Source: an uncultured Gemmatimonadaceae bacterium
GTDB taxonomy: Bacteria > Gemmatimonadota > Gemmatimonadetes > Gemmatimonadales > Gemmatimonadaceae
Direction of reading: 5' to 3'
DNA length: 64,000 nt
NCBI GenBank assembly: GCA_963822945.1
Contig: CAWGJO010000004.1
Span: 64,001 to 128,000, forward strand
A program made the translations under genes and the position numbers. Positions 1 to 12,418 of the stretch are shown here, piece by piece. The notes under the pieces are model-generated. The model did not search any database and was not told the DNA's origin. It saw only the letters and a list, made by a program, of their open reading frames with translations. Position 1 is the stretch's first letter; each line of letters starts with the position of its first letter.

Positions 1-399
1 GAGGCGAGCCGGGAGGCCGGCGCTGAGGCGCTCCGGCGCGCGCGCGAATCGCTGGCCTGCGGCGAGTACGCGGCGGCGCTCGAGGCGGGGCGGGCCGCGG
101 TCGAGACGCAGGGCACCGAGGCGCGGCTGGTGACCGCGCGCGCCCTCGTGAAACTGGAGCGCTACGCCGATGCCGCCGAGGAACTCCGGCGGGCCGTGTA
201 TGCCGACCCGCTCACCGCGCGCGTGCACCTCGACCTCGGGTTCGCCGCCGTGCGCACGGGCGAGTTCGCCACCGCGCGCGCGAGTTGGGAGCACTTTTTG
301 CGATTGGCATCCGGCGGGGCCGACGCCGCCCGCGCCCGCTCGGCACTCGACGCGCTCACCCGCCTCATGCACCTGCTGGAGGCGCACGCCGATGGCTGA
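1..399 (+). CDS. TPR-repeat protein, C-terminal part (5' end lies outside the window)
   Basis: Frame is open from base 1 to TGA 397-399. TPR-like helices ARALVKLERYADAAEELRRAVYADP / ARVHLDLGFAAVRTGEFATARASWEHFL. Stop overlaps the next ATG. Confidence 0.75.
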   Translation, partial: EASREAGAEALRRARESLACGEYAAALEAGRAAVETQGTEARLVTARALVKLERYADAAEELRRAVYADPLTARVHLDLGFAAVRTGEFATARASWEHFLRLASGGADAARARSALDALTRLMHLLEAHADG

Positions 400-1234
400 C
401 GACATCCGGCGGTGGAGCGAGGAGCTGGCGCGCGATCCGGGCAGCCTGGCGTTCCTGCTCCTCGGCGAGGCGCTGCGCCGCCAGGGCGACCTGGAGACCG
501 CGCAGCGTGTTGCCGTCCACGGCCTCAAGCGGCATCCGCACCACGCCGATGCGCACGACCTTCTGGCCCGCATCTACGCGGACCAGGGGCAGGTGGACCG
601 GGCGGCGGAGGAGTGGGAGATGACGCTCCGCATGACGCCGGAACATCCGGGAGCGCTCAAGGGGATGGCGTTCGTCTGCTTCCAGCGGCACCAGTTCGAG
701 GAAGCCGAGGACTACCTGCGTCGGGCGGCGCTGGGCGACGCGCCGGATTCGGGCATCCGGGCCGCGCTGGACACCGTGCGGCGCAACTCGACGGCCATCG
801 ACGCGTCCGAAGTCGAGGCGGCGGTGGATGCGGAGACCGATGCGGATCCCCAATTGGTGTTCGCGCGCATTCTCGAGACGGAAGACCGGACGGCGCTCCT
901 GCTCGACGGATCGGGATTGGTGCTCGCCGGCGCGTACCTGACCCCCGACGGCGACGATGTCGCGGCGGAGGTGGGGGCGCAGCTGAGCGGCGTGTCGGAG
1001 GAAGCCGACCGCGCGACGCGGCATCTCGGTATCGGCGAGTGGACGTCGATCGTGTTCGAGACGGAGGCCGCGGTGGTGGCCATGGCGCCGGCGGCCGACG
1101 GCGGGCTGCTCGTGCTCGCCGCCTCACGCGCGACGCCGCTGGGGCTGCTGCGGCGGCTGCTCGACCGGTGTGCCGAGCAGGCGCGCCGATGGATGGCGTG
1201 GCACGACGCGGGCCGGCCGGGGGACGGCGCATGA
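392..1234 (+). CDS. TPR + C-terminal Roadblock/LC7 (MglB-like) domain fusion protein
   Basis: ATG at 392 (MADDIRRW...). N-terminal TPRs (HADAHDLLARIY...AAEEWEMTLRMTPEHPGALKGMAF). C-terminal Roadblock pattern ALLLDGSGLVLAG...VGAQLSGVSEEADRATRHLGIGEWTSIVFETE...LLVLAA...LGLLR. Confidence 0.8.
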   Translation: MADDIRRWSEELARDPGSLAFLLLGEALRRQGDLETAQRVAVHGLKRHPHHADAHDLLARIYADQGQVDRAAEEWEMTLRMTPEHPGALKGMAFVCFQRHQFEEAEDYLRRAALGDAPDSGIRAALDTVRRNSTAIDASEVEAAVDAETDADPQLVFARILETEDRTALLLDGSGLVLAGAYLTPDGDDVAAEVGAQLSGVSEEADRATRHLGIGEWTSIVFETEAAVVAMAPAADGGLLVLAASRATPLGLLRRLLDRCAEQARRWMAWHDAGRPGDGA

Positions 1235-1578
1235 GTTCGCCGTTTCGGGAGATGCTGCATTCGCTCATGCGACTGCGTGGGGTGTTGGCCACCATGCTCG
1301 TGGACGAGCACGAGGGCATGATCATCGATTCGATACTGCAGGTCGGTCAGGACGGCGACCGCGTGGCGGCCCTCGCCGCGTCGCTCCACCGCAAGGCGCG
1401 CAAGTCGGCCGAGGCGGCGGGAATGGGTGGCGTCTCGTACATGCAACTCGATGCAGCGAGCGGGCGGATCTGCGCGGCGGGGCGCGGCACGATGGTGCTG
1501 GTGGTCGTCGCGGCGCCCACCGCCAACATCGGGCTGGTGCGGGTGGAGACACTCAAGGCCGTGCAGGCGCTGCCATGA
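1231..1578 (+). CDS. Roadblock/LC7 domain protein (MglB/MglC-like), 115 aa
   Basis: ATGA overlap at 1231. RGVLATMLVDEHEGMII...VAALAASL...MGGVSYMQLDAASGRI...LVVVA...NIGLVR fits the Roadblock consensus. Confidence 0.85.
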   Translation: MSSPFREMLHSLMRLRGVLATMLVDEHEGMIIDSILQVGQDGDRVAALAASLHRKARKSAEAAGMGGVSYMQLDAASGRICAAGRGTMVLVVVAAPTANIGLVRVETLKAVQALP

Positions 1579-2051
1579 CCATCCGCGTCGTCGAACCCTG
1601 GGTCGAAGCGCCGCTGAAGCGCTTCGTGGACGATGCCCGCGTGACGATTGCGCTGCTGCTGCTGCCGAGCGGACAGGTGCTCGCGGAGCACGGGTTCACG
1701 CGATCGCTCGACGTCGCCGCGGCCTGCGCGCTCGCGGCGGCCATCCACGCGTCGGGGGGCGAACTCGGCCGGATGCTCGACGGTCGCCCGTTCAGTGGGC
1801 TGCACCACGCGGGCCAGGACCGCCAGATCTTCCTGGGCGAGGCGCGGACGCCGCGGGGTACGTACATTTTCCTGACCGTCTTCGACCAGGAAAGCTCACT
1901 CGGGCTCGTTCGGCTGTATTTTGACGAATTCGTGGCGAACCTGAGTGCCGCGGCCCCCGAAGACAGCGGCGCCTCCTCCGACACCGTTCTCGCCGACACC
2001 TTCGAACGGGATCTCAACCGCAACCTGGCCGCCCTGTTCGGTCGGGCCTGA
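1575..2051 (+). CDS. mglB: MglB, Roadblock-family GAP of MglA, 158 aa
   Basis: ATGA overlap. ALLLLPSGQVLAEHG...ALAAAIHASGGELGRML...FSGLHHAG...FLTVFDQESSLGLVRL, plus a C-terminal helix FERDLNRNLAALFG. Sits directly upstream of mglA. Confidence 0.8.
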   Translation: MTIRVVEPWVEAPLKRFVDDARVTIALLLLPSGQVLAEHGFTRSLDVAAACALAAAIHASGGELGRMLDGRPFSGLHHAGQDRQIFLGEARTPRGTYIFLTVFDQESSLGLVRLYFDEFVANLSAAAPEDSGASSDTVLADTFERDLNRNLAALFGRA

Positions 2052-2071: not shown

Positions 2072-2677
2072 GTGCCGCTCGTCAACTACGCTACCCGCGA
2101 GATCACCTGCAAGATCGTCTACTACGGACCCGGCCGGTCCGGAAAGACGACCAACTTGCATCACATCTACGGGCAGGTGCCGGAAGACCGGAAGGGGAAG
2201 ATGGTGTCGCTGGCGACGCAGACCGACCGCACCCTGTTCTTCGATTTCCTGCCGCTCGATCTCGGCACGATCTCGGGGTTCACCACCAAATTCCAGCTCT
2301 ACACGGTGCCGGGGCAGGTATACTACCAGTCCACGCGGAAGCTGGTGCTGCAGGGGGCCGACGGCGTCGTGTTCGTGGCCGACAGCCAGACGCGCCAACT
2401 CGACGAGAACATCGAGAGCTTTCAGGACCTGCACGCGAACCTGGCGGATCAGGGCGTCGACGTGCGGGCGGTGCCCCTCGTGCTCCAGTACAACAAGCAG
2501 GATCTGCCGCGCGACCTGATCATGGCCACCGAGGAGTTGCGCGACGCGATCAACTTTCGCGGCGTTCCCGATTTTCCGGCCGATGCCCTGCACGGGCCGG
2601 GGGTGTTCGAGACCCTGCGGGGCATCTCGGAACTCGTGTTGAAGCGCCTGAGTTCTCCCTCACGTGCGGCGAGGTAG
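2072..2677 (+). CDS. mglA: MglA small Ras-like GTPase
   Basis: KIVYYGPGRSGKTTN (G1), TDRTLFFDFLP (catalytic Arg), LYTVPGQ (G3), YNKQD (G4): canonical MglA motifs. Confidence 0.95.
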   Translation: MPLVNYATREITCKIVYYGPGRSGKTTNLHHIYGQVPEDRKGKMVSLATQTDRTLFFDFLPLDLGTISGFTTKFQLYTVPGQVYYQSTRKLVLQGADGVVFVADSQTRQLDENIESFQDLHANLADQGVDVRAVPLVLQYNKQDLPRDLIMATEELRDAINFRGVPDFPADALHGPGVFETLRGISELVLKRLSSPSRAAR

Positions 2678-2680
2678 CGC

Positions 2681-4639
2681 GTGTCGTTGGACACCCGGAT
2701 GCGATTCGAGCACTTCGAGGCGGGCGCGGCCAATCACGAGGCCGTGTCCGCGGGGCGCGCCGTCGCCCGATCGCCGGGGCAGAAGCACAACCCGCTCACC
2801 TTCTTCGGGGTCGCGGGAGTCGGCAAGACGCATCTGATGCAGGCCATCGGGCATGCCGTGGTGGAAGCCCAGCCGGCCCTGCGCGTGGAGTATCAGACGG
2901 CGGACGAATTCGCGAAGCAGCTCCACGCCGCCGTCGCCGCCAGCCAGACCGACGAGTACATCCGGGGATGGGCGCGCGTGGACGTCCTGCTGCTGGATGA
3001 CATCCAGGGGCTCGCCGACCAGCGCGAGGCGCAGTCGGAGCTGCTGCGGCTGCTCGAGGCGATGCAGAGCATGGAGCGCCAGGTGGTGATGACCAGCGAC
3101 CGTCCGCCGGCCGAGATCGCGGGGTTCGATCCCGCCCTGGTCTCGCGGATCGCCGGCGGCCGGATCGTGGAGATCGGCGCGCCGGACGCTGCGACGCGCG
3201 TGGCGATTCTCAGGGCACGGTGCCGGGAGCGGGACGTGATCCTGGAGCCGGGCGTGGTGGAGGAGATCGGGCGCATCGAGACCGGCAACGTGCGCGAGCT
3301 GCACGGACTGCTCCATCGCATCGTCGACTTCCAGTCGCTGGGCGACGAGCCGGTGCACGCCGACGACGTGCTGACTCTGCTCGACCACGCGCCCGAAGCG
3401 CGGGCGGCAGTGGGCGACTCGGCGCCGTCCGCGGCCACGGGTGCCCTCGATTTCGAGAGCTTCCTCACCGACATCGCGAGCGCCGTGACGGCGCACGTCG
3501 AAGGGTGGAAGTCGCACGTGGCCGAGGCCGTGGCGGGGTGGCAGTCGGCGGGATACCGCACCAAGGTGCTGGAGCGGCTGCTGGACGAGCCGTCGCCGCC
3601 CCCCAACTACGAGGCCCTGCTGCGCGGATTCGGCGCCACGGTTCGCCGGCTCAAGGAGCTGGAGTCCGAGGCCGTCGAGGCCGATCCGTCGGTGGCCGGC
3701 CACGACGTGTTCCGCGACCCCGAGCGCATGCGCGAGGCCGAGGCCATGGTGCAGCGCGCGCGGGCGGGCGCCGTGGACCTGCCCGGCCCCTCGGTGGAGT
3801 TCTCACGCGCCGGGTTCGAGGTCGGCAAGTCGAATCAGGCGGCCGTGCGTGCGGCCGACGCCGTGGCGGCCGAACCGGGCAGCCGGTACAACCCCCTGGT
3901 GATCATCGGTCCCGGCGGGACGGGGAAGACGCACCTGCTCAACGCGCTCGGCCACGAATTGGTGAACGCCAGCGGAGGCGCGGCCGCGGTGGCGTGCGTG
4001 ACCGGCCAGCAGTTCGCCGACGAGTTCATCGCCGCGCTGCGCGACGGCACGCTCAATCAGTGGCGCCGGCGGTACCGGCGCGTGGACGCGCTGCTGATGG
4101 ACGACCTCCAGGCGGTGGCCGGGAAGGAGCGCACCCAGGACGAGGTGTTCGAGCTGTTCGGCGACCTGCTCGACGCCGGCAAGCAGATCGCGTGCACGGC
4201 GGCGCAGCTGCCTCGGGACATGACCGGCCTCGACGAGCGCCTCCGCGTACGGTTCGAGGGCGGGCTCGTGGTGGAGTTGGCGCCTCCGGACGTCGCGATG
4301 CGCGAGCAGTTGTACCGGCGGTTCCTGGACGGGGTGGCCGCCGATCAACTCGACCCGCTGGCGCGCTACCTCGCGTCGCGGCCCGCCGCCGGCGTACCCG
4401 ACATCATCGACACGATCCATCGGCTGTCCGTATCGGCCGACGCGGTGGGGGCGCCGCTGTCGTTGGACGTGGCGCGGCGGGAACTCGAGGGGCCGGAGCC
4501 CGTGGCGGCCCGGATGCCGACGCCGGTGAGCGCCGCGCCGGTGGTCCGCGCGGCCAGTGACATGTTCTTCCTGGACGACGAGAAGGTGGTCTGGGAGTTG
4601 CGCGATGTCGCGTCGCGCGTGGTCGAGGAGCTGGGCTAG
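2681..4639 (+). CDS. Protein with two tandem DnaA-domain-III-like AAA+ modules; lacks DnaA domains I and IV
   Basis: Module 1: FEHFEAGAAN..NPLTFFGVAGVGKTHL..LLLDDIQ..TSDRPP..LVSRI..NVRELHG. Module 2: FEVGKSN..YNPLVIIGPGGTGKTHLL..LLMDDLQ..KERTQDE..DERLRVRF. No HTH/DHTT domain IV. Confidence 0.88.
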   Translation: MSLDTRMRFEHFEAGAANHEAVSAGRAVARSPGQKHNPLTFFGVAGVGKTHLMQAIGHAVVEAQPALRVEYQTADEFAKQLHAAVAASQTDEYIRGWARVDVLLLDDIQGLADQREAQSELLRLLEAMQSMERQVVMTSDRPPAEIAGFDPALVSRIAGGRIVEIGAPDAATRVAILRARCRERDVILEPGVVEEIGRIETGNVRELHGLLHRIVDFQSLGDEPVHADDVLTLLDHAPEARAAVGDSAPSAATGALDFESFLTDIASAVTAHVEGWKSHVAEAVAGWQSAGYRTKVLERLLDEPSPPPNYEALLRGFGATVRRLKELESEAVEADPSVAGHDVFRDPERMREAEAMVQRARAGAVDLPGPSVEFSRAGFEVGKSNQAAVRAADAVAAEPGSRYNPLVIIGPGGTGKTHLLNALGHELVNASGGAAAVACVTGQQFADEFIAALRDGTLNQWRRRYRRVDALLMDDLQAVAGKERTQDEVFELFGDLLDAGKQIACTAAQLPRDMTGLDERLRVRFEGGLVVELAPPDVAMREQLYRRFLDGVAADQLDPLARYLASRPAAGVPDIIDTIHRLSVSADAVGAPLSLDVARRELEGPEPVAARMPTPVSAAPVVRAASDMFFLDDEKVVWELRDVASRVVEELG

Positions 4640-4640
4640 C

Positions 4641-6257
4641 ATGGCCATCAAGGGCAGCTTGAAGGAGGCCAGCCTCCCCGACGTGCTCCAGCTCCTGGCG
4701 ATGGGCCGGAAGACCGGGTGTCTGAGCGTCAACCACCGGACGAACTTCGGCTACATCTATTTCGACAAGGGGCGCATTTCGTACGCGTCGATCGTGAACC
4801 GGCGGGACCGGTTGGGCGACATGCTGGTGAAGAACGGCATCATCTCCGCCGAGCAGCTCAAGTCGGCCATCGAGGCCCAGGATCAGGAGCGCGAGCGGCG
4901 CATCGGCGAACTGCTGGTGGAGATGGGCTACCTGTCGCGCGACGCGCTGCGCCAGCACATCCGCGAGCAGATCGAGGAGGCGGTGTACTTCCTGTTCACC
5001 TGGAATCAGGGCTCGTTCAACTTCGAGGCCGACGTCCAGCCGGACGAGCAGGAATTCCTGGTGTCGATCAATCCCGAGTCGCTGCTGCTCGAAGGCGCGC
5101 GACGCGTGGACGAGTGGACGCTCGTCGAGAAGAAGATTCCCACGTTCGACATCGTGTTCGAGGTCGATCGGCCGAAGATCCTGGCCAGCGACCTCGATCT
5201 GACGCCGGAGCAGCGGGGGCTGCTGGAGCTGGTCGACGGCCGGCGGGACGTGCAGCAGATCATCGACGCCTCGGGCATGGGCGAGTTCGAAGTGGGGAAG
5301 GTGCTGTACGGCCTCGCCACCACCGGCTTCCTGCACCGCATCGGCACGTCGAAGGCCGGGGACGCCCAGGTGTCGGAAGCCCGGGTGCAGGAGCACTACA
5401 ACCTCGGCGTCGCGTTCTACAAGACGGGGATGTTCGACGAAGCGGTGCGCGAGTTCCGCCGCGTGATGGACCTCAAGCCCAACGACCCGTCGGCGCAGTT
5501 CTACCTCGGGCTGGTGCAGCTGCGCCAGGAACGGTGGCACGATGCGCTGGCGACGTTCGAGGCCGCGGTGGCGCGCCCCGGCGCCACCGCCGCGGTGTAT
5601 CACAACCTCGCGTACGCACTCGAGCGGCTGGGGCGCCTGGCCGAGGCGCAGCGGGCGCTGCAGGAGGCGTCGGCCCGCAGTCAGGGGGCCAGCCCGCAGA
5701 TCGAGACCTCGATCGGCATCGTCGCGCTGCGCTCCGGCGATCTGGCGGCCGCTGACGAGGCGCTGACGGCCGCGCGGCCGCTGTGGCCCCGGGCGCCGTC
5801 GGCGGCCTGGTATCACTATGCGGCGCTCACGGCGGCGCTGCTCGGCGACCTCGGGCGTGCCCAGACCATTCTCGACGAAGCGGTGGGCGCGCATCCGCAC
5901 AGCGCCGTGCTCTACAACAATCTCGCCGTGGTGCGCGAACGCCAGAACGCCGGCGAGGCGGCGGCGGCGGCGCTCGACCGGGCGCTGTCGGAGGATCCCT
6001 CCGTGCCGCAGGTGCACAAGAACCTTGGCGACGTGGCCTACCGCGCCGGGCGGTTCGACGAGGCGCTCGAGTCGTACCAGCGCGCCATCAAAGCGAAGCC
6101 GGATCTCGGGGACGACGTCTACCTCAAGCTCGGGAACATCAAGTTCCGCCAGCAGCAGAAGGAGGAGGCGCTGCGGCTCTGGCAGCGCGCGCTCGAACTC
6201 GATCCCACCAACGCCATCGTGCGCACCAACCTCGACGCCGTGCGGCAGGCGCTGTGA
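4641..6257 (+). CDS. DUF4388 (PatA_N-like) + MshEN-type motif + TPR repeat protein
   Basis: ATG 4641. GSLKEASLPDVLQLLAMGRKTG..IYFDKGRI..FLFTWNQGSFNF..LLLEGARRVDEW (DUF4388). Tandem RLG/RIG..L...G......L...(I)..Q motifs. Many TPRs in the C-terminal half (HYNLGVAFY, YHNLAYAL, YNNLAVV, HKNLGDV, YLKLGNI). Confidence 0.85.
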   Translation: MAIKGSLKEASLPDVLQLLAMGRKTGCLSVNHRTNFGYIYFDKGRISYASIVNRRDRLGDMLVKNGIISAEQLKSAIEAQDQERERRIGELLVEMGYLSRDALRQHIREQIEEAVYFLFTWNQGSFNFEADVQPDEQEFLVSINPESLLLEGARRVDEWTLVEKKIPTFDIVFEVDRPKILASDLDLTPEQRGLLELVDGRRDVQQIIDASGMGEFEVGKVLYGLATTGFLHRIGTSKAGDAQVSEARVQEHYNLGVAFYKTGMFDEAVREFRRVMDLKPNDPSAQFYLGLVQLRQERWHDALATFEAAVARPGATAAVYHNLAYALERLGRLAEAQRALQEASARSQGASPQIETSIGIVALRSGDLAAADEALTAARPLWPRAPSAAWYHYAALTAALLGDLGRAQTILDEAVGAHPHSAVLYNNLAVVRERQNAGEAAAAALDRALSEDPSVPQVHKNLGDVAYRAGRFDEALESYQRAIKAKPDLGDDVYLKLGNIKFRQQQKEEALRLWQRALELDPTNAIVRTNLDAVRQAL

Positions 6258-7081
6258 TGACGGTCGCCGAGCCGCAGGACGAGGACTTTCAGGCCCTGCT
6301 CGACAAGATCTCGCGCGATCGGGGATTTCACTGCGCCAGCTACAAGGCCACCTGCCTGCGCCGCCGGGTCGGGGTGCGCATGCGGGCACGCGGGCTGCAC
6401 CGCTACGTGGACTATGCGGGCCTGCTCGATGCCGACCTGGGGGAATACGACCTGCTGCTCGACGCGCTGACGATCAACGTCACGAAGCTGTTCCGGAATC
6501 CCGAGGTGTACCACGCCATGCTGCGCGACGTGGTGCCGGTGGTGTGGGACGCCGCGCCGTCGCGAATTCGGGTGTGGAGCGCCGGATGCGCGTCGGGCGA
6601 GGAGCCGTATTCGCTGGCCGCCCTGTTCCACCTGCACGCGGCGGCGCGTGGCGAACTCCACCGGCTGCCGCGCGTGGAGATTCTGGGCACCGACATCGAC
6701 CGGCGCAGCCTGGCGGCGGCGGAGTGCGGCGAGTTCGAGGAGCGCGATTTCAGCGAGACGCCCGAGGCCTGGCGGTCCGCGTATTTCGCGCCCGCGGCGC
6801 CGTTCACGGTGGTCCCCGAGTTGCGCCGGCTGGTGAAGTTCCGCCAGCATGATCTACTGCGCGAGCCCCCGCCGCAGGGCGAGCACGACTTGATCGTGTG
6901 CCGAAATGCGATCATCTACTTCGATCGGGTGTCGCAGGAGCGGCTGTTCGAATCCTTTTACTCGGCGTTGGCCCCCGGAGGGTTCCTGGTACTCGGCAAG
7001 GTGGAAACGCTCTTCGGTCGTGCGCGGCAACTCTTCCGTCCCGTGGACGCTCGCGAACGGATCTTCGTGCGGCCCGCATGA
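6257..7081 (+). CDS. cheR: Chemotaxis protein-glutamate O-methyltransferase CheR
   Basis: TGATG overlap. LTINVTKLFRN, RVWSAGCASGEEPYSLA, GTDID, DLIVCRNAIIYFD, LAPGGFLVLG. Confidence 0.92.
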   Translation: MTVAEPQDEDFQALLDKISRDRGFHCASYKATCLRRRVGVRMRARGLHRYVDYAGLLDADLGEYDLLLDALTINVTKLFRNPEVYHAMLRDVVPVVWDAAPSRIRVWSAGCASGEEPYSLAALFHLHAAARGELHRLPRVEILGTDIDRRSLAAAECGEFEERDFSETPEAWRSAYFAPAAPFTVVPELRRLVKFRQHDLLREPPPQGEHDLIVCRNAIIYFDRVSQERLFESFYSALAPGGFLVLGKVETLFGRARQLFRPVDARERIFVRPA

Positions 7082-7560
7082 GCGAGCAACGCGTCGGGAT
7101 CGCCGATCTCGCGGTCGCCGCGGGGGAGGGAACGCTCTGCACGCTCGGGCTCGGGTCGTGCGTGGCGATCGTGCTCTACGACGCGGAGGCGCGGGTGGGC
7201 GGGCTGGCGCACGTCCTGTTGCCCGAGCCGGGCATGTCGCGCCTGCACGACAACCCGGCGCGCTTCCCGGAGACCGCCGTGCCCGCCCTCATCGCACGGA
7301 TGCGGGAGCTCGGCGCCGATCCGGCCCGGATGACGGCCCGCCTCGTGGGCGGGGCCAGCATGTTCTCCAGTCTGCTGCCCCGCGGCACGCCGACCATCGG
7401 CGGGCGCAACGTCGACTCCTCGCGGCAGGCCCTGCAGCGGGCCGGCATCACGATTGCCGGCGAGGACGTGGGGATGGAGCACGGGCGCAGCGTCTATCTG
7501 CACATCGCCGATGGCCAGGTCGAAGTGCGCTCGCTCGCGCGAGGGAGTCGTGTCCTCTAA
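7078..7560 (+). CDS. cheD: Chemoreceptor glutamine deamidase CheD
   Basis: VGIAD..TLGLGSCVAIVLYD..GGLAHVLLP (catalytic Cys/His), ARLVGGASMF, IGGRN, EDVG..GRSV. Confidence 0.93.
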   Translation: MSEQRVGIADLAVAAGEGTLCTLGLGSCVAIVLYDAEARVGGLAHVLLPEPGMSRLHDNPARFPETAVPALIARMRELGADPARMTARLVGGASMFSSLLPRGTPTIGGRNVDSSRQALQRAGITIAGEDVGMEHGRSVYLHIADGQVEVRSLARGSRVL

Positions 7561-8617
7561 GCCCTCCGTCCTGGTGGTGGACGACAGCGCGCTCATGCGG
7601 CGCGTGATCGCGGAGCTGGTCACCGAATCGGAGGAGTTCACCGTGGTCGGCGTGGCGCGGAACGGGCGGGAGGCGATTGCCCACGTGCTGGCGCTCAACC
7701 CCGACCTCGTGACACTCGACATCGAGATGCCGGAGATGGACGGGCTGCAGGCGCTGGCGCAGATCATGCGCGATGCTCCCCGCCCGGTGGTGATGCTGAG
7801 CGGGGCCGAGACGATGGATGGGCGCGATGCCGCGCTGCGCGCGCTGGAACTCGGCGCCGTGGACTTCGTGCGCAAGCCGTCGGGCCCCATCAGCCTCGAC
7901 CTCGCCGTGGTGGGCGAGCGGTTGCGGGGCGCGCTCCGGGCCGCCGCGCAGGCGAACCTGCGCGGCCTGCAGACGCCGGTACGGCGCCCCGGCACGGGAC
8001 GCCGCGGGGGCGTGCGGCCGGCCGCGTCCCGACCCAGGCGCGCCGTGGCGATCGCGGCCTCGACCGGCGGCCCGCGCGCGCTCACGCAGGTCCTGCCGGG
8101 GCTGCCGGCGGCTCTCGACGCCGCGGTGCTCGTGGTGCAGCACATGCCGCCCGGGTTCACGCGCAGCCTGGCGCAGCGGCTCGACGCGATGGGGCCGCTG
8201 CCGGTGCACGAGGCCGAGGCGGGTCAGATCGTCCAGAGCGGGCATGTATACGTGGCGCCGGGCGGCAAGCACATGCGCGTGGCCGACGACGCCCAACCGG
8301 TGATCGTGCTCGACGAGACGCCGCCCGTGTGGGGCGTGCGACCGGCGGCCGATCCGCTCTTCCGGTCGGTGGCGGCCCTGTTCGGCGAGCGGTGCGTGGG
8401 GGTGGTACTCACCGGCATGGGGCGCGACGGCGCCGACGGGCTGCGGGCCATTCGCGATGCGGGGGGCCGCCGCGTCGTGCAGGACCGGGACACCTCGATC
8501 ATCTACGGCATGCCGCACGCCGCCCTGGAGGCCGCGGGCGCCGATCGCGTGGCGCCGCTGGCGAGCGTCGCGGCCGCCATCGTCGCGCTGCTGGCCACGG
8601 CGGGTGAGCCGGCGTGA
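7550..8617 (+). CDS. cheB: Chemotaxis response regulator protein-glutamate methylesterase CheB
   Basis: GTG 7550. Receiver VLVVDDSALMR..TLDIEMPEMDG..DFVRKP. Esterase triad motifs ASTGGP, QHMPP, TGMGRDG. Confidence 0.95.
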   Translation: MSSKPSVLVVDDSALMRRVIAELVTESEEFTVVGVARNGREAIAHVLALNPDLVTLDIEMPEMDGLQALAQIMRDAPRPVVMLSGAETMDGRDAALRALELGAVDFVRKPSGPISLDLAVVGERLRGALRAAAQANLRGLQTPVRRPGTGRRGGVRPAASRPRRAVAIAASTGGPRALTQVLPGLPAALDAAVLVVQHMPPGFTRSLAQRLDAMGPLPVHEAEAGQIVQSGHVYVAPGGKHMRVADDAQPVIVLDETPPVWGVRPAADPLFRSVAALFGERCVGVVLTGMGRDGADGLRAIRDAGGRRVVQDRDTSIIYGMPHAALEAAGADRVAPLASVAAAIVALLATAGEPA

Positions 8618-9411
8618 TCGACGAACACTGGGGCCTGCTGCGCAAACCGTTCGCGAACACGCCGGATCCGGCGTTCGTGTACCACTCCCCGGTGTTCGAC
8701 GAAGGATACGCCCGCCTGCTGTACGACGTCACGGATCTGCGGGGGGGCCTGTCGCTGGTCACGGGCGAGATCGGGTGCGGCAAGACGATGCTCGTCGAGG
8801 CGCTGCGCGCCCGGCTCGGCGGCACTGCCTACGACCCCTGGGTCGTGGAGTATCCGCGCCTCACCGGTGCGCAGTTGCTGCAGTTCGTCGCTGCGGCGGC
8901 CGCGCTGCCCAACCCGCCGAAGAACAAGCCGGCGCTGGTGGCGGCGCTGCGGGGCCGGCTGGCCGAGCTGCACGCCGGGGGACGGCGCCCCGTGCTGATC
9001 GTGGACGAGGCGCAGCTGGCGAGTCCGAGCCTGCTCGAGGAACTGCGGCTGCTCACGAACTTCGAGGACCGGACCGACAAGCACCTCCACGTCGTGTTGC
9101 TGGGGCAGCCGGAGTTGCGCGAGCGCGTCGTGAAGCGTCCGCAGATCGACCAGCGCGTGAGCCTTCGGTTCCATCTCGACCCACTCGATGCCGGTGACGT
9201 GCAGGCGTACGTCCTGCATCGGCTGCGTGTGGCGGGCGCGATGCACGAGATCTTCACGGCCGAGGCGCTGGCCGCCCTGGCGGCGCGGAGCGGTGGTGTT
9301 CCGCGCGTCGTGAACAACCTGGCCATGCAGGCGCTGTTCGTTGGGGCGATGCGCGGATTGCCGCGCGTCGATGAGCGACTGATACACGACGTGGCGGACG
9401 ACCGGCAATGA
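8614..9411 (+). CDS. ExeA/GspA/MshM-like AAA ATPase (short, soluble form)
   Basis: HWGLLRKPFANTPDPAF, Walker A GEIGCGKT, Walker B LIVDEAQ, LEELRLLTN, LLGQPEL, SGGVPRVVN. No TM or PG-binding tail. Confidence 0.88.
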   Translation: MIDEHWGLLRKPFANTPDPAFVYHSPVFDEGYARLLYDVTDLRGGLSLVTGEIGCGKTMLVEALRARLGGTAYDPWVVEYPRLTGAQLLQFVAAAAALPNPPKNKPALVAALRGRLAELHAGGRRPVLIVDEAQLASPSLLEELRLLTNFEDRTDKHLHVVLLGQPELRERVVKRPQIDQRVSLRFHLDPLDAGDVQAYVLHRLRVAGAMHEIFTAEALAALAARSGGVPRVVNNLAMQALFVGAMRGLPRVDERLIHDVADDRQ

Positions 9412-10103
9412 AGACACCCACCATCAGCTACCGCGAATGGCTCCACCGGAAGCCGACGCCGCCGGCGTCGGGCGCGCCGGTGGCGGAGCCCGGTCTGCCG
9501 TCTCCGGAAACGCCCGCGCCTGCTGGCGGGGAGCCCGACGCGCAGCGTGCCGAGCCGGTGGAGGTCGTCGGTCCCGCGCAGCCGCGGTCCGCCGCAGCGC
9601 AGGCGGCGGTCTCCGTCGCAGCGCAGGCGGCGGTCCCCGTCGCAGCGGCGGCGTCCGCCGTACCCGCGGCGAAAGCGGTGGAGCATCTGGTGTTCCGGGT
9701 GGGGCGCGAGTTGTTCGCGCTGCCCCTCGACGTGGTCGAAGAAGCGCTCGACATCGACCGCATCCAGCGCATCCCCGAGATGAACCCCACGATGTTGGGG
9801 GTGCTCACGCTGCGCGGCGCCACCGTGCCGCTGTACGCGCCGTCGATTCCGCTGGGCGTGCCCGACAGCGACCACCGGGCGGCACTCGTCTTCGTTCGGG
9901 CGAGAGGGATGGTGGCCCTCGCCGTGGACGATGTGGACGACGTGCTGGAGATCGCCGCCGACGACGTGCAGCGCCCGCCGCTGGATTTCACCGACGGCGT
10001 GTTGTCGGGCGTCGCGCGTCGTGGCGCGGACCTCATCGGCGTGCTGGATGCCGACGCGCTCATCGCCGCCTGTCGCGCCGAACCGGTGCTGGAGACCGCA
10101 TGA
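9408..10103 (+). CDS. cheW: CheW with a long Pro/Ala-rich N-terminal extension
   Basis: LVFRVGRELFALPLDVVEE..IQRIP..MLGVLTLRG..VALAVDDVDDV..LIGVLD is the CheW pattern. About 90 aa of low-complexity sequence precede it. Confidence 0.85.
   Translation: MKTPTISYREWLHRKPTPPASGAPVAEPGLPSPETPAPAGGEPDAQRAEPVEVVGPAQPRSAAAQAAVSVAAQAAVPVAAAASAVPAAKAVEHLVFRVGRELFALPLDVVEEALDIDRIQRIPEMNPTMLGVLTLRGATVPLYAPSIPLGVPDSDHRAALVFVRARGMVALAVDDVDDVLEIAADDVQRPPLDFTDGVLSGVARRGADLIGVLDADALIAACRAEPVLETA
9594..9665 (+). repeat. 24-bp tandem coding repeat (2 near-identical copies + 1 degenerate)
   Basis: gcagcgcaggcggcggtctccgtc / gcagcgcaggcggcggtccccgtc / gcagcggcggcgtccgccgtaccc, encoding AAQAAVSV AAQAAVPV AAAASAVP. 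Confidence 0.75.
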
Positions 10104-10582: not shown

Positions 10583-11420
10583 TGCCCCGCTCGGCGAATA
10601 CCGGGCACAGTACGCGGCGTTGGACTCGCGGCTCGACGCGCCGACCGCCGGCGCCGAACGCGATGCACTGAAGGCCGAGATCGTGGCGTTCTTCCGGCAG
10701 GTGGAGCGGGACGTCGTCGAACTCACGAAGCTGCGCGACGAGATCAAGACGCTCGTGGACAAGTGGAAGGCGCTTGCCGCGCCGTCGCTGGCCCCCGAGT
10801 TCAGCGCGGCGCGGCCGGTGGTTCACGCCGACCACATCGGGGCGTCCACGTTCATCGAGAAGGGCTGGAGCCGGCTGTCGCTGGGCGAGTACGAGGCGGC
10901 GGAGGCGGCCCTGCGCAAGGCCATCGAACTGTCACCCAACGATCCGCAGTCCGAAGCGCTGCTCGGCTGGGCGCTGATGCTCCAGGAGAAGTACGACGAC
11001 GCGCTGCTGACCTTCCAGCAGGTGCTCACCCGCGAACCGATGAACGCGTTGGCGCGCATCAACGTCGGCTATATCTGCCTCAAGAAGCGGATATTCGGGG
11101 AGTCCATCGAACACCTGTCCAAGGCCATCCGGCTGGACAACGACAAGAAGGCGACGCTGTACGCGCACTTCTACCTGGGGCTGGTGTATCTGGAGCGCGA
11201 CATGTTCGAGGACGCCCAGACCTTCTTCCAGAAGACCATCGCGCTGGGACCCAACTTGATCGAGGCCTACTACGAACTGGGACGCGCGTACTGGTTCAAC
11301 GGCCAGCGCGACGAGGCGATGCAGACGTGGCGCGACGGATTCGCCATGAACAAGTTCAATCCATGGGGAAAGCGGTGCGCCGAAGTCCTGAAAACGGTGG
11401 AGGCGGGCGGGGAGCCATAG
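10575..11420 (+). CDS. Coiled-coil + TPR repeat protein
   Basis: N-terminal heptads (LKAEIVAFFRQVERDVVELTKLRDEIKTLVDKW) followed by about 5 TPRs (GEYEAAEAALRKAIELSP, AHFYLGLVY, AYYELGRAY). Confidence 0.85.
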   Translation: MADAPLGEYRAQYAALDSRLDAPTAGAERDALKAEIVAFFRQVERDVVELTKLRDEIKTLVDKWKALAAPSLAPEFSAARPVVHADHIGASTFIEKGWSRLSLGEYEAAEAALRKAIELSPNDPQSEALLGWALMLQEKYDDALLTFQQVLTREPMNALARINVGYICLKKRIFGESIEHLSKAIRLDNDKKATLYAHFYLGLVYLERDMFEDAQTFFQKTIALGPNLIEAYYELGRAYWFNGQRDEAMQTWRDGFAMNKFNPWGKRCAEVLKTVEAGGEP

Positions 11421-11452
11421 CCGGACGGCGCGCCCGCGCGCCGGTGCGTGCC

Positions 11453-12418
11453 ATGCTGGTCGCGTGCGCGGTGGCGCTGGCCTTGCCGGCGGCGGCGCGG
11501 AGCCAGGCGGCTGCCCCGCTTCGCCTCGACCGTGGGCGGTTCACCGTGGTCGCCTATCCGGAGGACGCGCGGCTGGCGCGGACCATTCTCCAGACCGCGC
11601 TGGTGCACGACACCTTTCCGTGGCTGCCCCGTCCGCGGGAGCACGTGCTGATCGCGATCGCGCCCGACTACGCGCGATTCCGCGAATGGGCCGGCCCCGA
11701 CGCGCCCGAATGGGGCGCGGCGCTCGCCTTTCCCGACACGCGGCGCATCGTGCTCCAGGGAAGCCGGTCTGGCGCCGACGCCGGAAACCCCGTCGAGGTG
11801 GTGCGCCACGAACTGGCGCACCTGGCGCTCCACGAGTATCTGGGCGGCCTGCCGCCGCGCTGGTTCGACGAGGGCTATGCCAGTTACTCGGCCCACGAAC
11901 TCTCGCGCGACGATGCGCTCGCGGCGAATCTGGCGCTGGCGCTCGAGGGGGTGCCGACCCTTCGGCAGTTGGAGGGGTACTTCTCCCAGGGGGCCACGAC
12001 GGCGCGCGCCGGGTATGCGCTGGCGGCGAGTGCCGTGGCCGATATGGCAGCGCTGGATCCCCGGAACGGTCTGACACATGTGTTTGCGGCCTGGCGCGAG
12101 ACCGGGTCTCTCGATCGGGCGTTGCGCCAGTCCGACGGGATCACGCTCGACGGCTTCGAAGCCGACTGGCGAAAGCAGGCGCGCCGCCGTTACGGCGCAC
12201 TGGCCATCATGGAAGATCTCACCCTGCTCGGGATCCTGTTTCTGGTGTTCGTGCTGCCGCTCTGGATTGCGCGACGCCGGCGCGATCGCTCCCGGATGGA
12301 GGCGTTGAAGGCGGCGGATGCGGCCGCCGAGGCGTTGGAGCGCGAAAGCGCGCTGGCGGAGCTGCTGGGCCCGTGGCCGCCGGCGGGAGGGACGGGCGGT
12401 GGAACGGGCGATGCGTAG
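11453..12418 (+). CDS. Exported zinc metallopeptidase (peptidase MA-like / gluzincin) with a C-terminal TM anchor
   Basis: Signal-like N-terminus, VVRHELAH (HExxH), PRWFDEG, and a hydrophobic TM (LLGILFLVFVLPLWIA) followed by RRRRDR. Start position uncertain. Confidence 0.75.
   Translation: MLVACAVALALPAAARSQAAAPLRLDRGRFTVVAYPEDARLARTILQTALVHDTFPWLPRPREHVLIAIAPDYARFREWAGPDAPEWGAALAFPDTRRIVLQGSRSGADAGNPVEVVRHELAHLALHEYLGGLPPRWFDEGYASYSAHELSRDDALAANLALALEGVPTLRQLEGYFSQGATTARAGYALAASAVADMAALDPRNGLTHVFAAWRETGSLDRALRQSDGITLDGFEADWRKQARRRYGALAIMEDLTLLGILFLVFVLPLWIARRRRDRSRMEALKAADAAAEALERESALAELLGPWPPAGGTGGGTGDA

Follow-up and report, generated by a model that had tools for sequence, protein, structure and literature searches.

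The window, a 64,000-nucleotide stretch of contig CAWGJO010000004.1 from an uncultured Gemmatimonadaceae bacterium, begins with a tight string of genes on the plus strand, to which all coordinates below refer. At its 5' end lies a gene for a protein with TPR families and a Roadblock domain (170..1234; Robl_LC7 E 1.5e-8), followed by a Roadblock/MglB-like gene (1170..2051 as the longest frame; weak Robl_LC7 match, E 0.0065) and an MglA-like small GTPase gene (2072..2677; Arf, Ras and Roc matches). After a 3-nt gap from the mglA-like stop at 2677, and in the same reading frame, comes the gene under study (2681..4639; GTG start, GC3 0.93), whose 652-aa product (P0001), read from the ORF list and translation, carries two DnaA-type AAA+ modules and is called the twin protein here. 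One nucleotide separates its stop from ATG 4641, the start of a gene for a protein with a PATAN (DUF4388) domain, an MshEN-related c-di-GMP motif and TPRs (4641..6257; PF14332, E 3e-41). The earlier note had given these same spacings. The PATAN-MshEN-TPR protein scored 57 bits against NF053729 c-di-GMP_motif (cut-off 38) and is predicted to be a c-di-GMP sensor. Further downstream are CheB, AAA_22 ATPase and CheW genes of a Che-type cluster (7454..10103; Pfam), and CheW, CheY, CheA and CheC/X genes lie on the same contig upstream of the window. We saw no competence or DNA-processing gene in the cluster. It adjoins dcw cell-division genes, directly upstream of mraW-ftsI-murE, so a link to division is conceivable. 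The source genome encodes both type IV pili and flagella; it contains two PilT genes over the cut-off, FliG and 4 MCP genes.

The gene order recurs in relatives. We compared 21 loci, made up of 15 from three families of the order, 2 from genus g49 and 4 at class level. A gene with at least one DnaA domain III (DnaA-III) module and the linker domain described below is followed by the PATAN-MshEN-TPR gene in 21/21 and preceded by mglA in 20/21. The order is conserved in 15/15 loci of the three families and 2/2 of g49, and the four class-level loci have PATAN downstream in 4/4 and MglA upstream in 3/4. Within the set of 15, mglA orthologs (73-89% identical) always lie immediately 5' of the twin gene, the Roadblock/MglB-like gene just 5' of mglA, and the TPR-Roadblock gene is kept throughout. 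Relatives' matches to the Roadblock/MglB-like protein begin at query residues 3-147, and its true start is probably further downstream than the longest frame suggests. These counts bear out the earlier note, which had tied an initiator-clade ATPase to mgl/che genes. In family f7, a twin-PATAN pair occurs without an adjoining mglA or Roadblock gene, so MglA is perhaps not a direct partner. Complex prediction for the twin protein (A2) with MglA (A4) returned 0.32, 0.30 and 0.33 against 0.00, 0.14 and 0.00 for controls, a margin below the mark that weighs neither way on binding. Two apparent fusions, MglA-twin (P0351) and twin-PATAN (P0332), have deletion-type junctions and exist as single records; they are therefore weak at best and may be artefacts.

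The frame of the twin gene is uninterrupted in every locus examined. Independent DNA contigs from public runs (X1) match positions 2260-2804, including the mglA/twin junction, with zero differences, so this junction is not an assembly artefact. RNA contigs (X19) cover the stretch in part, the uncovered parts being uninformative on expression, and metatranscriptome contigs from a related strain bridge both junctions of the twin gene (a weak hint). A joint from 3007 to 4123 (X3), considered as a variant, was dropped; at depth 2.5 and with a side of 22 nt, it seems to be a chimera in which a contig joined the two homologous modules.

The twin protein matches PF00308 (Bac_DnaA) in two stretches (Pfam; E 5.2e-88, 293.8 bits), and its halves share 38% identity over 168 aa (E 6e-31). 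Neither PF08299 (domain IV) nor PF11638 (domain I) matched it in Pfam at E<=0.01, and module 1 begins at residue 4. Foldseek placed B. subtilis DnaA domain III first (8bv3_A; TM on target 0.93, rmsd 1.9, 35% identity). Two DnaA-like modules, their Walker A positions and missing domains I and IV had all been read from the letters in the earlier note and reappear here; on these searches, the protein is confirmed as a DnaA-clade ATPase without DNA-recognition domains. The refuting outcomes set out in the earlier note did not appear: there was no domain IV and no assembly artefact, and homologs are linked to mgl/che genes. The AF2 model has a mean pLDDT of 83.7 and a pTM of 0.46, the mutual placement of the two modules carrying no confidence. 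Against defence protein models (PADLOC), we found no match beyond the P-loop, the best being mad8 (36 bits, residues 405-464). Module borders were taken from an HMM of relatives' canonical DnaA domain III, and the end of module 2 from the alignment of the family.

Module 1 (residues 4-227, AAA+ base and lid; 2690..3361) is the one that occurs in every variant of the family. Its Walker A motif GVAGVGKT (2807..2830) includes invariant G46, K49 and H51 (alignment A2), and both Walker B aspartates, D106 and D107 (2996..3001), are present in 66/66 members. R156 (3146..3148), Arg in 63/66, aligns with R285, the arginine finger of E. coli DnaA. K49 is kept in 66/66, sensor I D140 in 64/66 and sensor II R205 in 62/66, and the ATP-site and arginine-finger residues as a whole are retained in 59-66 of 66 members. 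At the equivalent of E. coli R245, module 1 has Glu in 62/66, a reversal relative to DnaA, and at the V211 equivalent it has His in 59/66.

Module 2 (residues 373 to about 600; 3797..4480) has the Walker A motif GPGGTGKT (3908..3931; G413, G415, T417 and H418 invariant), with K416 in 65/66 and D474 in 66/66. The arginines R466 (= R227), R520 (= R281) and R524 (= R285) are present in 66/66, 65/66 and 64/66, and the L290 equivalent in 65/66. Equivalents of the ssDNA-contacting H/B motif are also kept (R484 (= R245) in 62/66; I450 (= V211), Ile in 57/66). ATP-site and arginine-finger residues are retained in 50-66 of 66 members. Sensor I is Asp in 50/66 and Ala508 in this protein; sensor II is Arg in 53/66 and Pro573 here, and in the source genus module 2 is degenerate, with both sensors gone. 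The module is missing in families f5 and f8 and lacks its lid in f4 and f7. From this pattern, module 2 seems to be accessory or regulatory.

Module 2 keeps the residues with which DnaA contacts ssDNA and other DnaA molecules, whereas module 1 reverses one of them, so a DNA- or DnaA-related role also fits module 2. One such role would be in a type IV filament system, as an ATPase that handles nucleic acids: module 2 would bind ssDNA (or RNA) in the manner of the DnaA filament, for instance during DNA uptake or to tether a polar complex to the nucleoid. The conserved I450 and R484 would serve it, the PilT genes are consistent with it, and DnaA-III is elsewhere joined to a T2SSE-type secretion ATPase (one protein, labelled Thermoplasmata) and, in giants of 1.9 kaa, to MshEN. 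However, the module that would bind is the one missing in f5 and f8 and truncated or degenerate elsewhere, the invariant module 1 carries Glu at the basic position, and the cluster showed no competence or DNA-processing gene; we regard this role as very unlikely.

Between the modules, the earlier note had described a helical linker of about 130 aa. Its helical character held up, but the connector is more than a linker: its ~138 aa comprise a ~37-aa disordered stretch (residues 236-272) and then a conserved, folded helical domain (core 273-363). The predicted disordered part (3386..3496) has pLDDT <50 at residues 236-260 and 264-272 and gappy, variable columns (A1). The linker domain spans residues 252-378, core about 273-363 (3434..3814), with the signature W..x..G-[YF]-x-T..LE ... 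F-R-D-P and invariant F258, F261, G291, L297, L324, F344, D346, A353 and P370. Predicted in isolation, it folds at pLDDT 83.9. No Pfam family matched it at E<=1, and among PDB sequences searched with a profile the best E was 0.33. EzrA (4uy3_A), its best structural match at Z 6.2, was rejected as its fold because that score is within noise for helical proteins. At E<=0.001 the linker profile recovered 399 representative proteins, some with 4-18 copies; overall, the domain recurs in long proteins as 2-18 tandem copies. The protein ends in a second conserved element, the C-terminal peptide FFLDDEKVVWELRDVASRVVEELG (4544..4636). Across 66 sequences it follows the motif [FW]F..x-EK-[VI]-[VI]-W-x-W-P ... 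R-[LV]-[IV]-E-[ED]-L, with E634, K635, R646 and E649 invariant, and every variant retains it, the single-module f5/f8 forms and the f4/f7 forms included. Given its low pLDDT, it is probably a docking peptide.

A separate, canonical dnaA, which the earlier note had expected elsewhere in the genome, lies on contig C20 as a 477-aa frame with PF00308 and PF08299, and is the only gene of the whole source genome to match PF08299. The twin protein scored 400 bits against the DnaA model TIGR00362 (cut-off 343.9), exceeding the cut-off only because the scores of its two modules sum; this accounts for names like 'chromosomal replication initiator protein' in some sources. In Gemmatimonadota it can mislead genome annotation as well as origin calling based on dnaA. 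We carried out the module phylogeny that the earlier note had called for. In a domain-III tree rooted on Hda (the root is a long branch), modules 1 and 2 fall into separate clades (100/100 and 99/100), both on long stems, outside a canonical clade (82/89) that holds all 26 sampled DnaAs. Long or truncated sequences (twin_L029_M1, twin_L030_M1, twin_L031_M1, Eco_DnaC, P0313_M1 and P0313_M2) were left out of the final trees.

These likenesses to DnaA raise the prospect of a replication or cell-cycle coupler, which would join DnaA oligomers or trigger DnaA-ATP hydrolysis, Hda-like without the clamp, and so tie initiation to polarity or division. The earlier note had raised co-assembly with DnaA or its inactivation, and that idea has lost ground. 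In its favour, module 2 retains the R285, R281, R227, L290 and R245 equivalents and a hydrophobic V211 position, the modules are 36-39% identical to relatives' own DnaA domain III, and the cluster stands just ahead of mraW-ftsI-murE. Set against this are the tree, in which both modules fall apart from canonical DnaA, and the Glu of the invariant module 1 at the R245 position. The Hda clamp-binding motif, of the QL[SP]LPL type, bears on it too: searched as QL[SPD]L[PF]L, it occurs in 0/66 family members, in line with the earlier note. Hda models stayed below their cut-offs (TIGR03420 137.4 vs 194.8 bits; NF005982 48 vs 268; NF006571 39 vs 297), as did those for DnaC/IstB (NF038214 106 vs 200 bits; DnaC NF005931 38 vs 357). 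Adding the distribution data that follow, we consider such a coupler distinctly unlikely.

Searching with the linker, we found the gene in 199/301 sampled genomes of the phylum. By family, linker and MglA occur, respectively, in 54/69 and 69/69 genomes of f1, 121/125 and 124/125 of f2, 3/3 and 3/3 of f3, 4/6 and 6/6 of f4, 1/1 and 1/1 of f5, 0/23 and 1/23 of f6, 11/47 and 22/47 of f7, 4/4 and 4/4 of f8, and 0/22 and 0/22 of f9-f12. Canonical DnaA is in every genome checked; the distribution of the gene tracks the MglA of the cluster, not DnaA. Families f5 and f8, of the same class, carry module 1, the linker domain and the C-terminal peptide only, so the twin state stressed in the earlier note holds for this gene without being universal or defining. 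In the sequences compared, the invariant core is module 1 plus the helical domain and C-terminal peptide.

The gene has also been lost cleanly in 4/4 examined loci of genera g22 and g35, where mglA and the PATAN gene are still present and PF00308 finds only canonical dnaA. The DnaA-III/linker gene is thus dispensable in nature, and the loss of the twin gene from four genomes that retain dnaA and the mgl cluster is a further point against a DnaA coupler. Such losses might instead point to a decaying paralog with little present function, retained only through its place in the operon, as might short forms in the source genus without the lid of module 1 and the absence there of sensors I and II from module 2. 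Its occurrence in 199/301 sampled genomes is hard to square with decay, as are 38 invariant columns over 66 sequences, catalytic residues that are nearly all retained and a frame intact in every locus examined. We think decay extremely improbable.

Outside the Gemmatimonadota twin family, the linker domain and DnaA-III recur together. A set of 120 proteins includes 37 twins with one linker copy and 25 single DnaA-III proteins with 2-7 copies; by this comparison, the linker domain stands as a unit of its own, found with DnaA-III in two architectures. Those 25 belong to the long proteins in which the linker domain recurs as repeats. Repeat-only linker-type proteins (P0174 and P0263) come from records labelled Thermoplasmata or Thermoplasmatota, and P0340, a DnaA-III protein without domain IV, from one labelled Thermoplasmata. 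It is established that archaea lack DnaA, and these archaeon-labelled records also speak against coupling to DnaA. In further proteins that lack domain IV, DnaA-III is joined with MshEN, DUF835 or a T2SSE secretion ATPase, partners that all suggest signalling or type-IV-filament themes.

Two previously undescribed groups resemble the twin protein in having DnaA domain III but no domain IV, together with helical repeats. The 8 giants with MshEN and two DnaA-III modules (P0276-P0284, 1867-1999 aa) are twins as well, with MshEN in the chain rather than in a neighbouring protein as here. The repeat, DnaA-III and zinc-ribbon proteins (for example P0195, P0267 and P0289) carry 2-7 copies of the linker domain of the twin protein. 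Unlike the twin modules, the DnaA modules of both groups branch among the canonical DnaAs. In the giants, the paired modules are sisters of one another (100/95), and their twin state thus stems from a separate duplication. Relatives of P0195 were sought in metagenome contigs, and those of P0267 and P0174 in genome contigs; none turned up. A scan with alignment A5 gave 80 loci, 79 of them ordinary DnaA genes with domain IV, and linker repeats or an MglA gene in none. A PATAN-like N-terminus of P0195/P0250 was considered and rejected (no DUF4388 at E<=1 in Pfam; BLASTP against the PATAN domain of the window E 3.2), and P0138, an apparent linker-DUF4388 protein, was dropped because it reads as a frameshifted gene call. 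We found no published description of this DnaA-III/linker family in the literature searched.

We give about an even chance to the reading that the twin protein is an ATP-driven, self-associating AAA+ part of a Che-controlled MglA/MglB/PATAN polarity module of motility type, and not a replication initiator. It best explains the fixed, tight gene order, the co-distribution with MglA, the conserved residues and the recurrence of the linker beside DnaA-III. ATP would be held at the intact Walker A and B motifs, and the arginine finger of one module would complete the ATP site of another, an arrangement found between neighbouring DnaA protomers. Such a contact could be internal, linking modules 1 and 2 of one chain, or could connect different chains, which is the sole option for single-module forms. 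A nucleotide-dependent oligomer would result, its lifetime set by hydrolysis. The polymerising scaffold of the earlier note, which we infer from the intact ATP-site and arginine-finger residues, is of this kind. The helical domain and C-terminal peptide probably attach the oligomer to products of neighbouring genes, likeliest the PATAN-MshEN-TPR protein and possibly MglA-GTP. In this way the module would help to position a polar machine or set its timing, with type IV pili or flagella as candidates.

Textbooks treat DnaA-clade ATPases as factors of replication and transposition, and a conserved member acting within a Ras-like polarity switch would represent a new use of initiator-type ATP-dependent assembly. 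The twin protein would then add a player to polarity control in a major, little-studied soil phylum. The newly defined helical domain, which travels with DnaA domain III, offers a way into the broader range of DnaA-III proteins that lack a DNA-binding domain. A bolder and, we think, unlikely extension is that DnaA-III, the W-x-G-[YF] helical domain and the C-terminal peptide form an old cassette for building DNA-independent, ATP-timed filaments or scaffolds, maybe shared by Gemmatimonadota and archaea. If true, initiator-type polymerisation would have turned cytoskeleton-like, placing type IV filament or other polar machines under small-GTPase and c-di-GMP control.

Among known proteins, DnaA (TIGR00362, PF00308; 8bv3, 2z4r, 3r8f, 1l8q, 2hcb) shares the AAA+ fold of domain III with both modules, along with Walker A GxGKTH, Walker B DD and the box VII arginines, and module 1 also has the NVRELxG sensor II. 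Unlike DnaA, the twin protein has no domains I, II or IV, carries two modules per chain and is not encoded at the dnaA locus. Hda/HdaA likewise consists of DnaA domain III without DNA-binding domains, but Hda has just one module of ~230 aa, bears a clamp-binding motif at its N-terminus and belongs to a replication context, in contrast to two modules in an mgl/che context. Type II tandem AAA+ proteins (p97/Cdc48, Rix7) also have two AAA+ modules per polypeptide. Foldseek ranked them after DnaA (TM 0.26-0.31, rmsd 15-23 A, 13-17% identity), and unlike theirs the twin modules are of the initiator clade, with a ~138-aa insert between them and no sign of a stacked double hexamer.

The closest parallel in circuitry shares a Che-type pathway, a Ras-like MglA and Roadblock proteins with the window: the Frz system of Myxococcus xanthus, acting on MglA/MglB(/MglC/RomR-RomX). 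Group 1 MglA has been recorded in Gemmatimonadetes, and the linkage of MglA/MglB and PATAN genes has been noted (PMC4316618, from the part of the text available). We found no DnaA-type ATPase in the published accounts of the Myxococcus system that we consulted, and 'DnaA' occurs 0 times in PMC4316618. Compared with Myxococcus, the Gemmatimonadota parts lie in one gene string, in which the PATAN-MshEN-TPR protein and the DnaA-type ATPase are extra members.

The gene for the twin protein (2681-4639, + strand) is an open reading frame of 652 aa (P0001) with a third-position GC of 0.93, in a window of high GC content (66-75%). Its coordinates and Walker A positions in the earlier note proved correct, as did the reading of its domains: Pfam matched Bac_DnaA (PF00308) twice along the protein (E 5.2e-88) and found neither domain IV (PF08299) nor domain I (PF11638). 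The NCBIfam DnaA equivalog TIGR00362 scored 400 bits with both modules summed, above its cut-off of 343.9, and aligned residues 3-234 with profile positions 104-335 of 437, so the alignment is limited to domain III; the NCBIfam Hda, IstB and DnaC models all scored under their cut-offs. The two halves share 38% identity over 168 aa. An AlphaFold2 model based on 66 homologs (mean pLDDT 83.7, pTM 0.46) predicted both modules and a helical region (residues 273-363) well, with residues 236-272, 606-627 and 647-652 disordered. Foldseek ranked DnaA domain III 8bv3_A first (TM 0.93 on target, rmsd 1.9, 35% identity), followed by the domain III structures 2z4r, 3r8f, 1l8q and 2hcb. The earlier note had raised the matter of a separate canonical dnaA; one is present on contig C20 of the source assembly (~4 Mb, 45 contigs, 88% complete) as a 477-aa frame with PF00308 and PF08299.

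The neighbouring genes place the twin mid-way in a Che-type/MglA/PATAN string adjoining the dcw cluster. A TPR and Roadblock gene (170-1234) and a Roadblock/MglB-like gene (up to 2051) precede an MglA-like GTPase gene (2072-2677, +), which shares the twin's frame and stops 3 nt before its start. One nucleotide past the twin's end, the ATG at 4641 begins the PATAN-TPR gene (4641-6257), which combines PATAN (DUF4388), a c-di-GMP motif related to MshE (NF053729, scoring 57 bits where the cut-off is 38) and TPR; both gaps had been noted earlier. A conserved 167-aa ORF (6412-6915, -) with no Pfam match lies between PATAN-TPR and cheB. Its position is shared by 10 of 15 order-level loci, all four twin-less loci and 2 of 4 class-level loci. 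Beyond it come CheB, an AAA_22 ATPase, CheW and further TPR proteins, then mraW, ftsI and murE. Upstream of the window, the same contig carries two lspA genes, CheW, a CheY-like receiver, CheA, CheC/X, an 896-aa TPR protein and the first PATAN gene (PATAN#1); the lspA (signal peptidase II) paralogs are adjacent and stand directly before the Che genes (L032:907-2011, G000:C4). Of the 15 order-level loci, only those of the closest relatives (L017, L018, L030 and L031) carry the AAA_22 gene (ExeA-like; 8614-9411, +) between cheB and cheW; the remaining 11 lack it. Among the TPR genes of the cluster tail, a 551-aa frame (10763-12418, +) weakly matches Peptidase_MA_2 (HExxH-type). Contigs from a public metatranscriptome of a related strain (run X19) cover 2567-2776 and 4551-4676, both junctions of the twin gene; DNA contamination is possible in such libraries, and we take these contigs as a weak hint of co-transcription with the neighbours. 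One low-depth contig from run X3 joins 3007 to 4123, with 11 foreign letters at the join and 1115 nt left out, and is probably a chimeric assembly of the homologous modules.

Close homologs of P0001 came from Gemmatimonadota metagenome-assembled genomes, under names such as 'DnaA/Hda family protein', 'DnaA ATPase domain-containing protein' and, at JGI, 'chromosomal replication initiator protein'; its language-model neighbours were Gemmatimonadota clusters too. Within the order, all 41 genomes searched (its own and the unpublished G022 included) gave a match, and in 40 the best match (E 1e-85 or lower) stood well above canonical-DnaA level, several being interrupted by a contig end or a frame break; only G018 matched no better than its canonical DnaA. 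All 15 loci examined from three families of the order share the arrangement PATAN#1, TPR-Roadblock, Roadblock, MglA, twin, PATAN-TPR, and in most of them CheB and TPR genes come next. The arrangement recurs in two loci of genus g49, where MglA is diverged (38% identity). Other families of the class vary the protein: flanked by MglA and PATAN-TPR are a 592-aa twin whose module 2 has no lid (f4) and a 401-aa protein of one module plus linker domain (f5), and an N-terminal extension, one module and a linker domain make up a 551-aa protein in f8, with PATAN-TPR next and MglA ~280 nt upstream. In the f7 locus a 679-aa twin precedes PATAN-TPR, with MglA and Roadblock genes absent nearby. Across all 21 loci (15 order-level, two of g49 and four from other families of the class), PATAN-TPR lies downstream in 21 and MglA upstream in 20.

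Distribution was mapped with only the linker region as the query, since this part of the protein gives no cross-matches to DnaA. It matched 199 of 301 Gemmatimonadota genomes drawn evenly across the phylum, and an MglA query (E<=1e-40) matched 231 of the same genomes; these tallies count four unpublished genomes (G022, G206, G087, G125), and dropping them alters no statement. By family, linker and MglA matches were 54/69 and 69/69 in f1, 121/125 and 124/125 in f2, 3/3 and 3/3 in f3, 4/6 and 6/6 in f4, 1/1 and 1/1 in f5, 0/23 and 1/23 in f6, 11/47 and 22/47 in f7, 4/4 and 4/4 in f8, and 0/22 and 0/22 in f9-f12. Fifteen f1 genomes gave no linker match: nine had a single, weaker MglA match (E 1e-46 to 1e-66) and six a strong one (E 1e-94 to 1e-99). 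Four of those six (G067, G078, G251 and G142; loci L054, L057, L056 and L055) were examined and had an intact cluster in which PATAN-TPR follows MglA by ~230-320 nt with no DnaA-type gene between, and PF00308 found just one gene in each genome, the canonical dnaA. Thus the twin gene can be lost alone while the rest of the module is retained. In G142, the stretch examined also lacked matches to Roadblock and PATAN#1 upstream.

The earlier note described a helical linker between the modules; it is helical, yet more than a linker, since it is predicted to fold alone (residues 252-378, pLDDT 83.9) and recurs as repeats. These residues had no Pfam match at E<=1, and a PDB profile search gave no convincing solved relative (best E 0.33). 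EzrA, the best VIA match (Z 6.2), fell within helical noise and was rejected. A profile built from 15 sequences and searched against 1.84 billion representative proteins matched 399 at E<=0.001 (67 of them at E<=1e-30), the majority being ~650-aa twins or their fragments. Twelve among the 150 matches listed were long, at 501-3090 aa, and carried the linker core 4-18 times; two of these, P0195 and P0267, terminate in DnaA domain III, and P0267 also has zinc ribbons. Two repeat-only proteins are labelled Thermoplasmata or Thermoplasmatota archaea at NCBI. Both belong to a set of long repeat proteins comprising P0158, P0160, P0174 (which starts with DUF835), P0185, P0229, P0250, P0256, P0263 and P0273, in which the repeat matches no Pfam family. 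A second search queried proteins of 686-2184 aa with the DnaA portion of P0195, and its matches were sorted by custom HMMs. The 120 matches listed comprised 45 canonical DnaAs with domain IV, 37 twins with one linker domain (MglA fused in front in one), 25 proteins with a single DnaA-III and 2-7 linker-type repeats, eight 'giants' of 1867-1999 aa (P0276-P0284) and five other forms, among them fusions of DnaA-III to DUF835 or to a T2SSE secretion ATPase. Giants consist of MshEN, DnaA-III, ~1200 aa of other helical repeats (weakly matching DUF4398) and a second DnaA-III. The label of one twin, P0313, is 'Candidatus Cloacimonetes bacterium'. In the T2SSE fusion P0340 (806 aa, with the label Thermoplasmata archaeon and annotated DnaA), a bacterial-type DnaA-III (18-177) is joined to T2SSE (PilB/GspE-like, 449-689). 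Three archaeal genomes used as controls (M. jannaschii, H. volcanii and M. acetivorans) also gave PF00308 scores above the cut-off, so a Bac_DnaA match alone is no proof of a bacterial-type DnaA in an archaeon.

We then placed the modules in a tree of 73 domain-III sequences (224 columns, IQ-TREE, LG+G4), rooted on the long branch of E. coli Hda and excluding twin_L029_M1, twin_L030_M1, twin_L031_M1, Eco_DnaC, P0313_M1 and P0313_M2. Module 1 (100/100), module 2 (99/100) and Gemmatimonadota canonical DnaAs (98/99) were each monophyletic. Modules 1 and 2 joined weakly (88/64) on two long stems, so their grouping may reflect long-branch attraction; both fell outside a clade (82/89) of all canonical DnaAs, giants and repeat-DnaA proteins. 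Giants and repeat-DnaA proteins grouped together (97/92) beside actinobacterial DnaAs (91/95), and the giants' two modules were sisters (100/95), a sign that duplication occurred a second time, independently. When class-level forms were added in a quick tree search, the f5 and f8 single modules fell within the module-1 clade (SH-aLRT 99) and the f4 and f7 second modules within the module-2 clade (97). The invariant core thus consists of module 1, linker domain and C-terminal peptide, with module 2 variable. That peptide, the C-terminal ~30 residues with invariant E634, K635, R646 and E649, also occurs in single-module and other class-level forms.

Aligning E. coli DnaA (NC_000913) with both modules, we counted residues over 66 members, using the residue roles of the DnaA literature. 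For Walker A, K178 corresponds to K49 (66/66) in module 1 and K416 (65/66) in module 2, and T179 to T50 (62/66, Ser in 4) and T417 (66/66); for Walker B, D235 and D236 correspond to D106 and D107 (66/66 each) and to D474 (66/66) and D475 (65/66). The arginine finger R285 is kept as R156 (63/66) and R524 (64/66), and R281 is Arg in 59/66 module 1 sequences (Ala152 in P0001) and R520 (65/66) in module 2. Sensor I D269 is D140 (64/66) in module 1 and Asp in 50/66 in module 2 (Ala508 in P0001); sensor II R334 is R205 (62/66) and Arg in 53/66 (Pro573 in P0001). From this census both modules look ATP-competent across the family, and in P0001's genus module 2 probably no longer controls hydrolysis. 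Some same-genus members are 573-580-aa forms with the module 1 lid (~70-80 residues including sensor II) deleted; these lid-less forms (L030:8001-9719 in G010, L031:7995-9716 in G004, also G013 and G002) have GKS in Walker A. The Hda-type clamp motif, absent according to the earlier note, was found in 0/66 members. At the ssDNA contacts, V211 (H motif) is His in 59/66 in module 1 and Ile in 57/66 in module 2, and R245 (B motif) is Glu in 62/66 and R484 (62/66), respectively. At the DnaA-DnaA contacts, R227 is Gly or Gln in module 1 and R466 (66/66) in module 2, and L290 is Leu in 62/66 (Arg161 in P0001) and L529 (65/66). Because the residues that DnaA uses to contact ssDNA and itself are retained in module 2, a role of the twin linked to DnaA or DNA stays alive as a minority view; the evidence argues against a replication initiator.

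Group 1 MglA has been recorded in Gemmatimonadetes and MglA/MglB-PATAN linkage noted (PMC4316618), and PATAN is discussed together with ComFB (PMC12448109). 'DnaA' has 0 occurrences in PMC4316618 and the terms sought have 0 in PMC11271474. Among the open-access papers found by full-text search, these three included, no passage covered describes the twin, its linker-type repeat, or any mgl cluster with a DnaA-type ATPase. Our evidence places the twin functionally with the MglA/PATAN/Che module, tightest beside the PATAN-MshEN-TPR protein. The mechanism we favour is that the twin would assemble head to tail via its arginine fingers, timed by nucleotide, and that its helical domain and C-terminal peptide would dock onto the neighbours, as surmised from the conserved residues and the known behaviour of DnaA.
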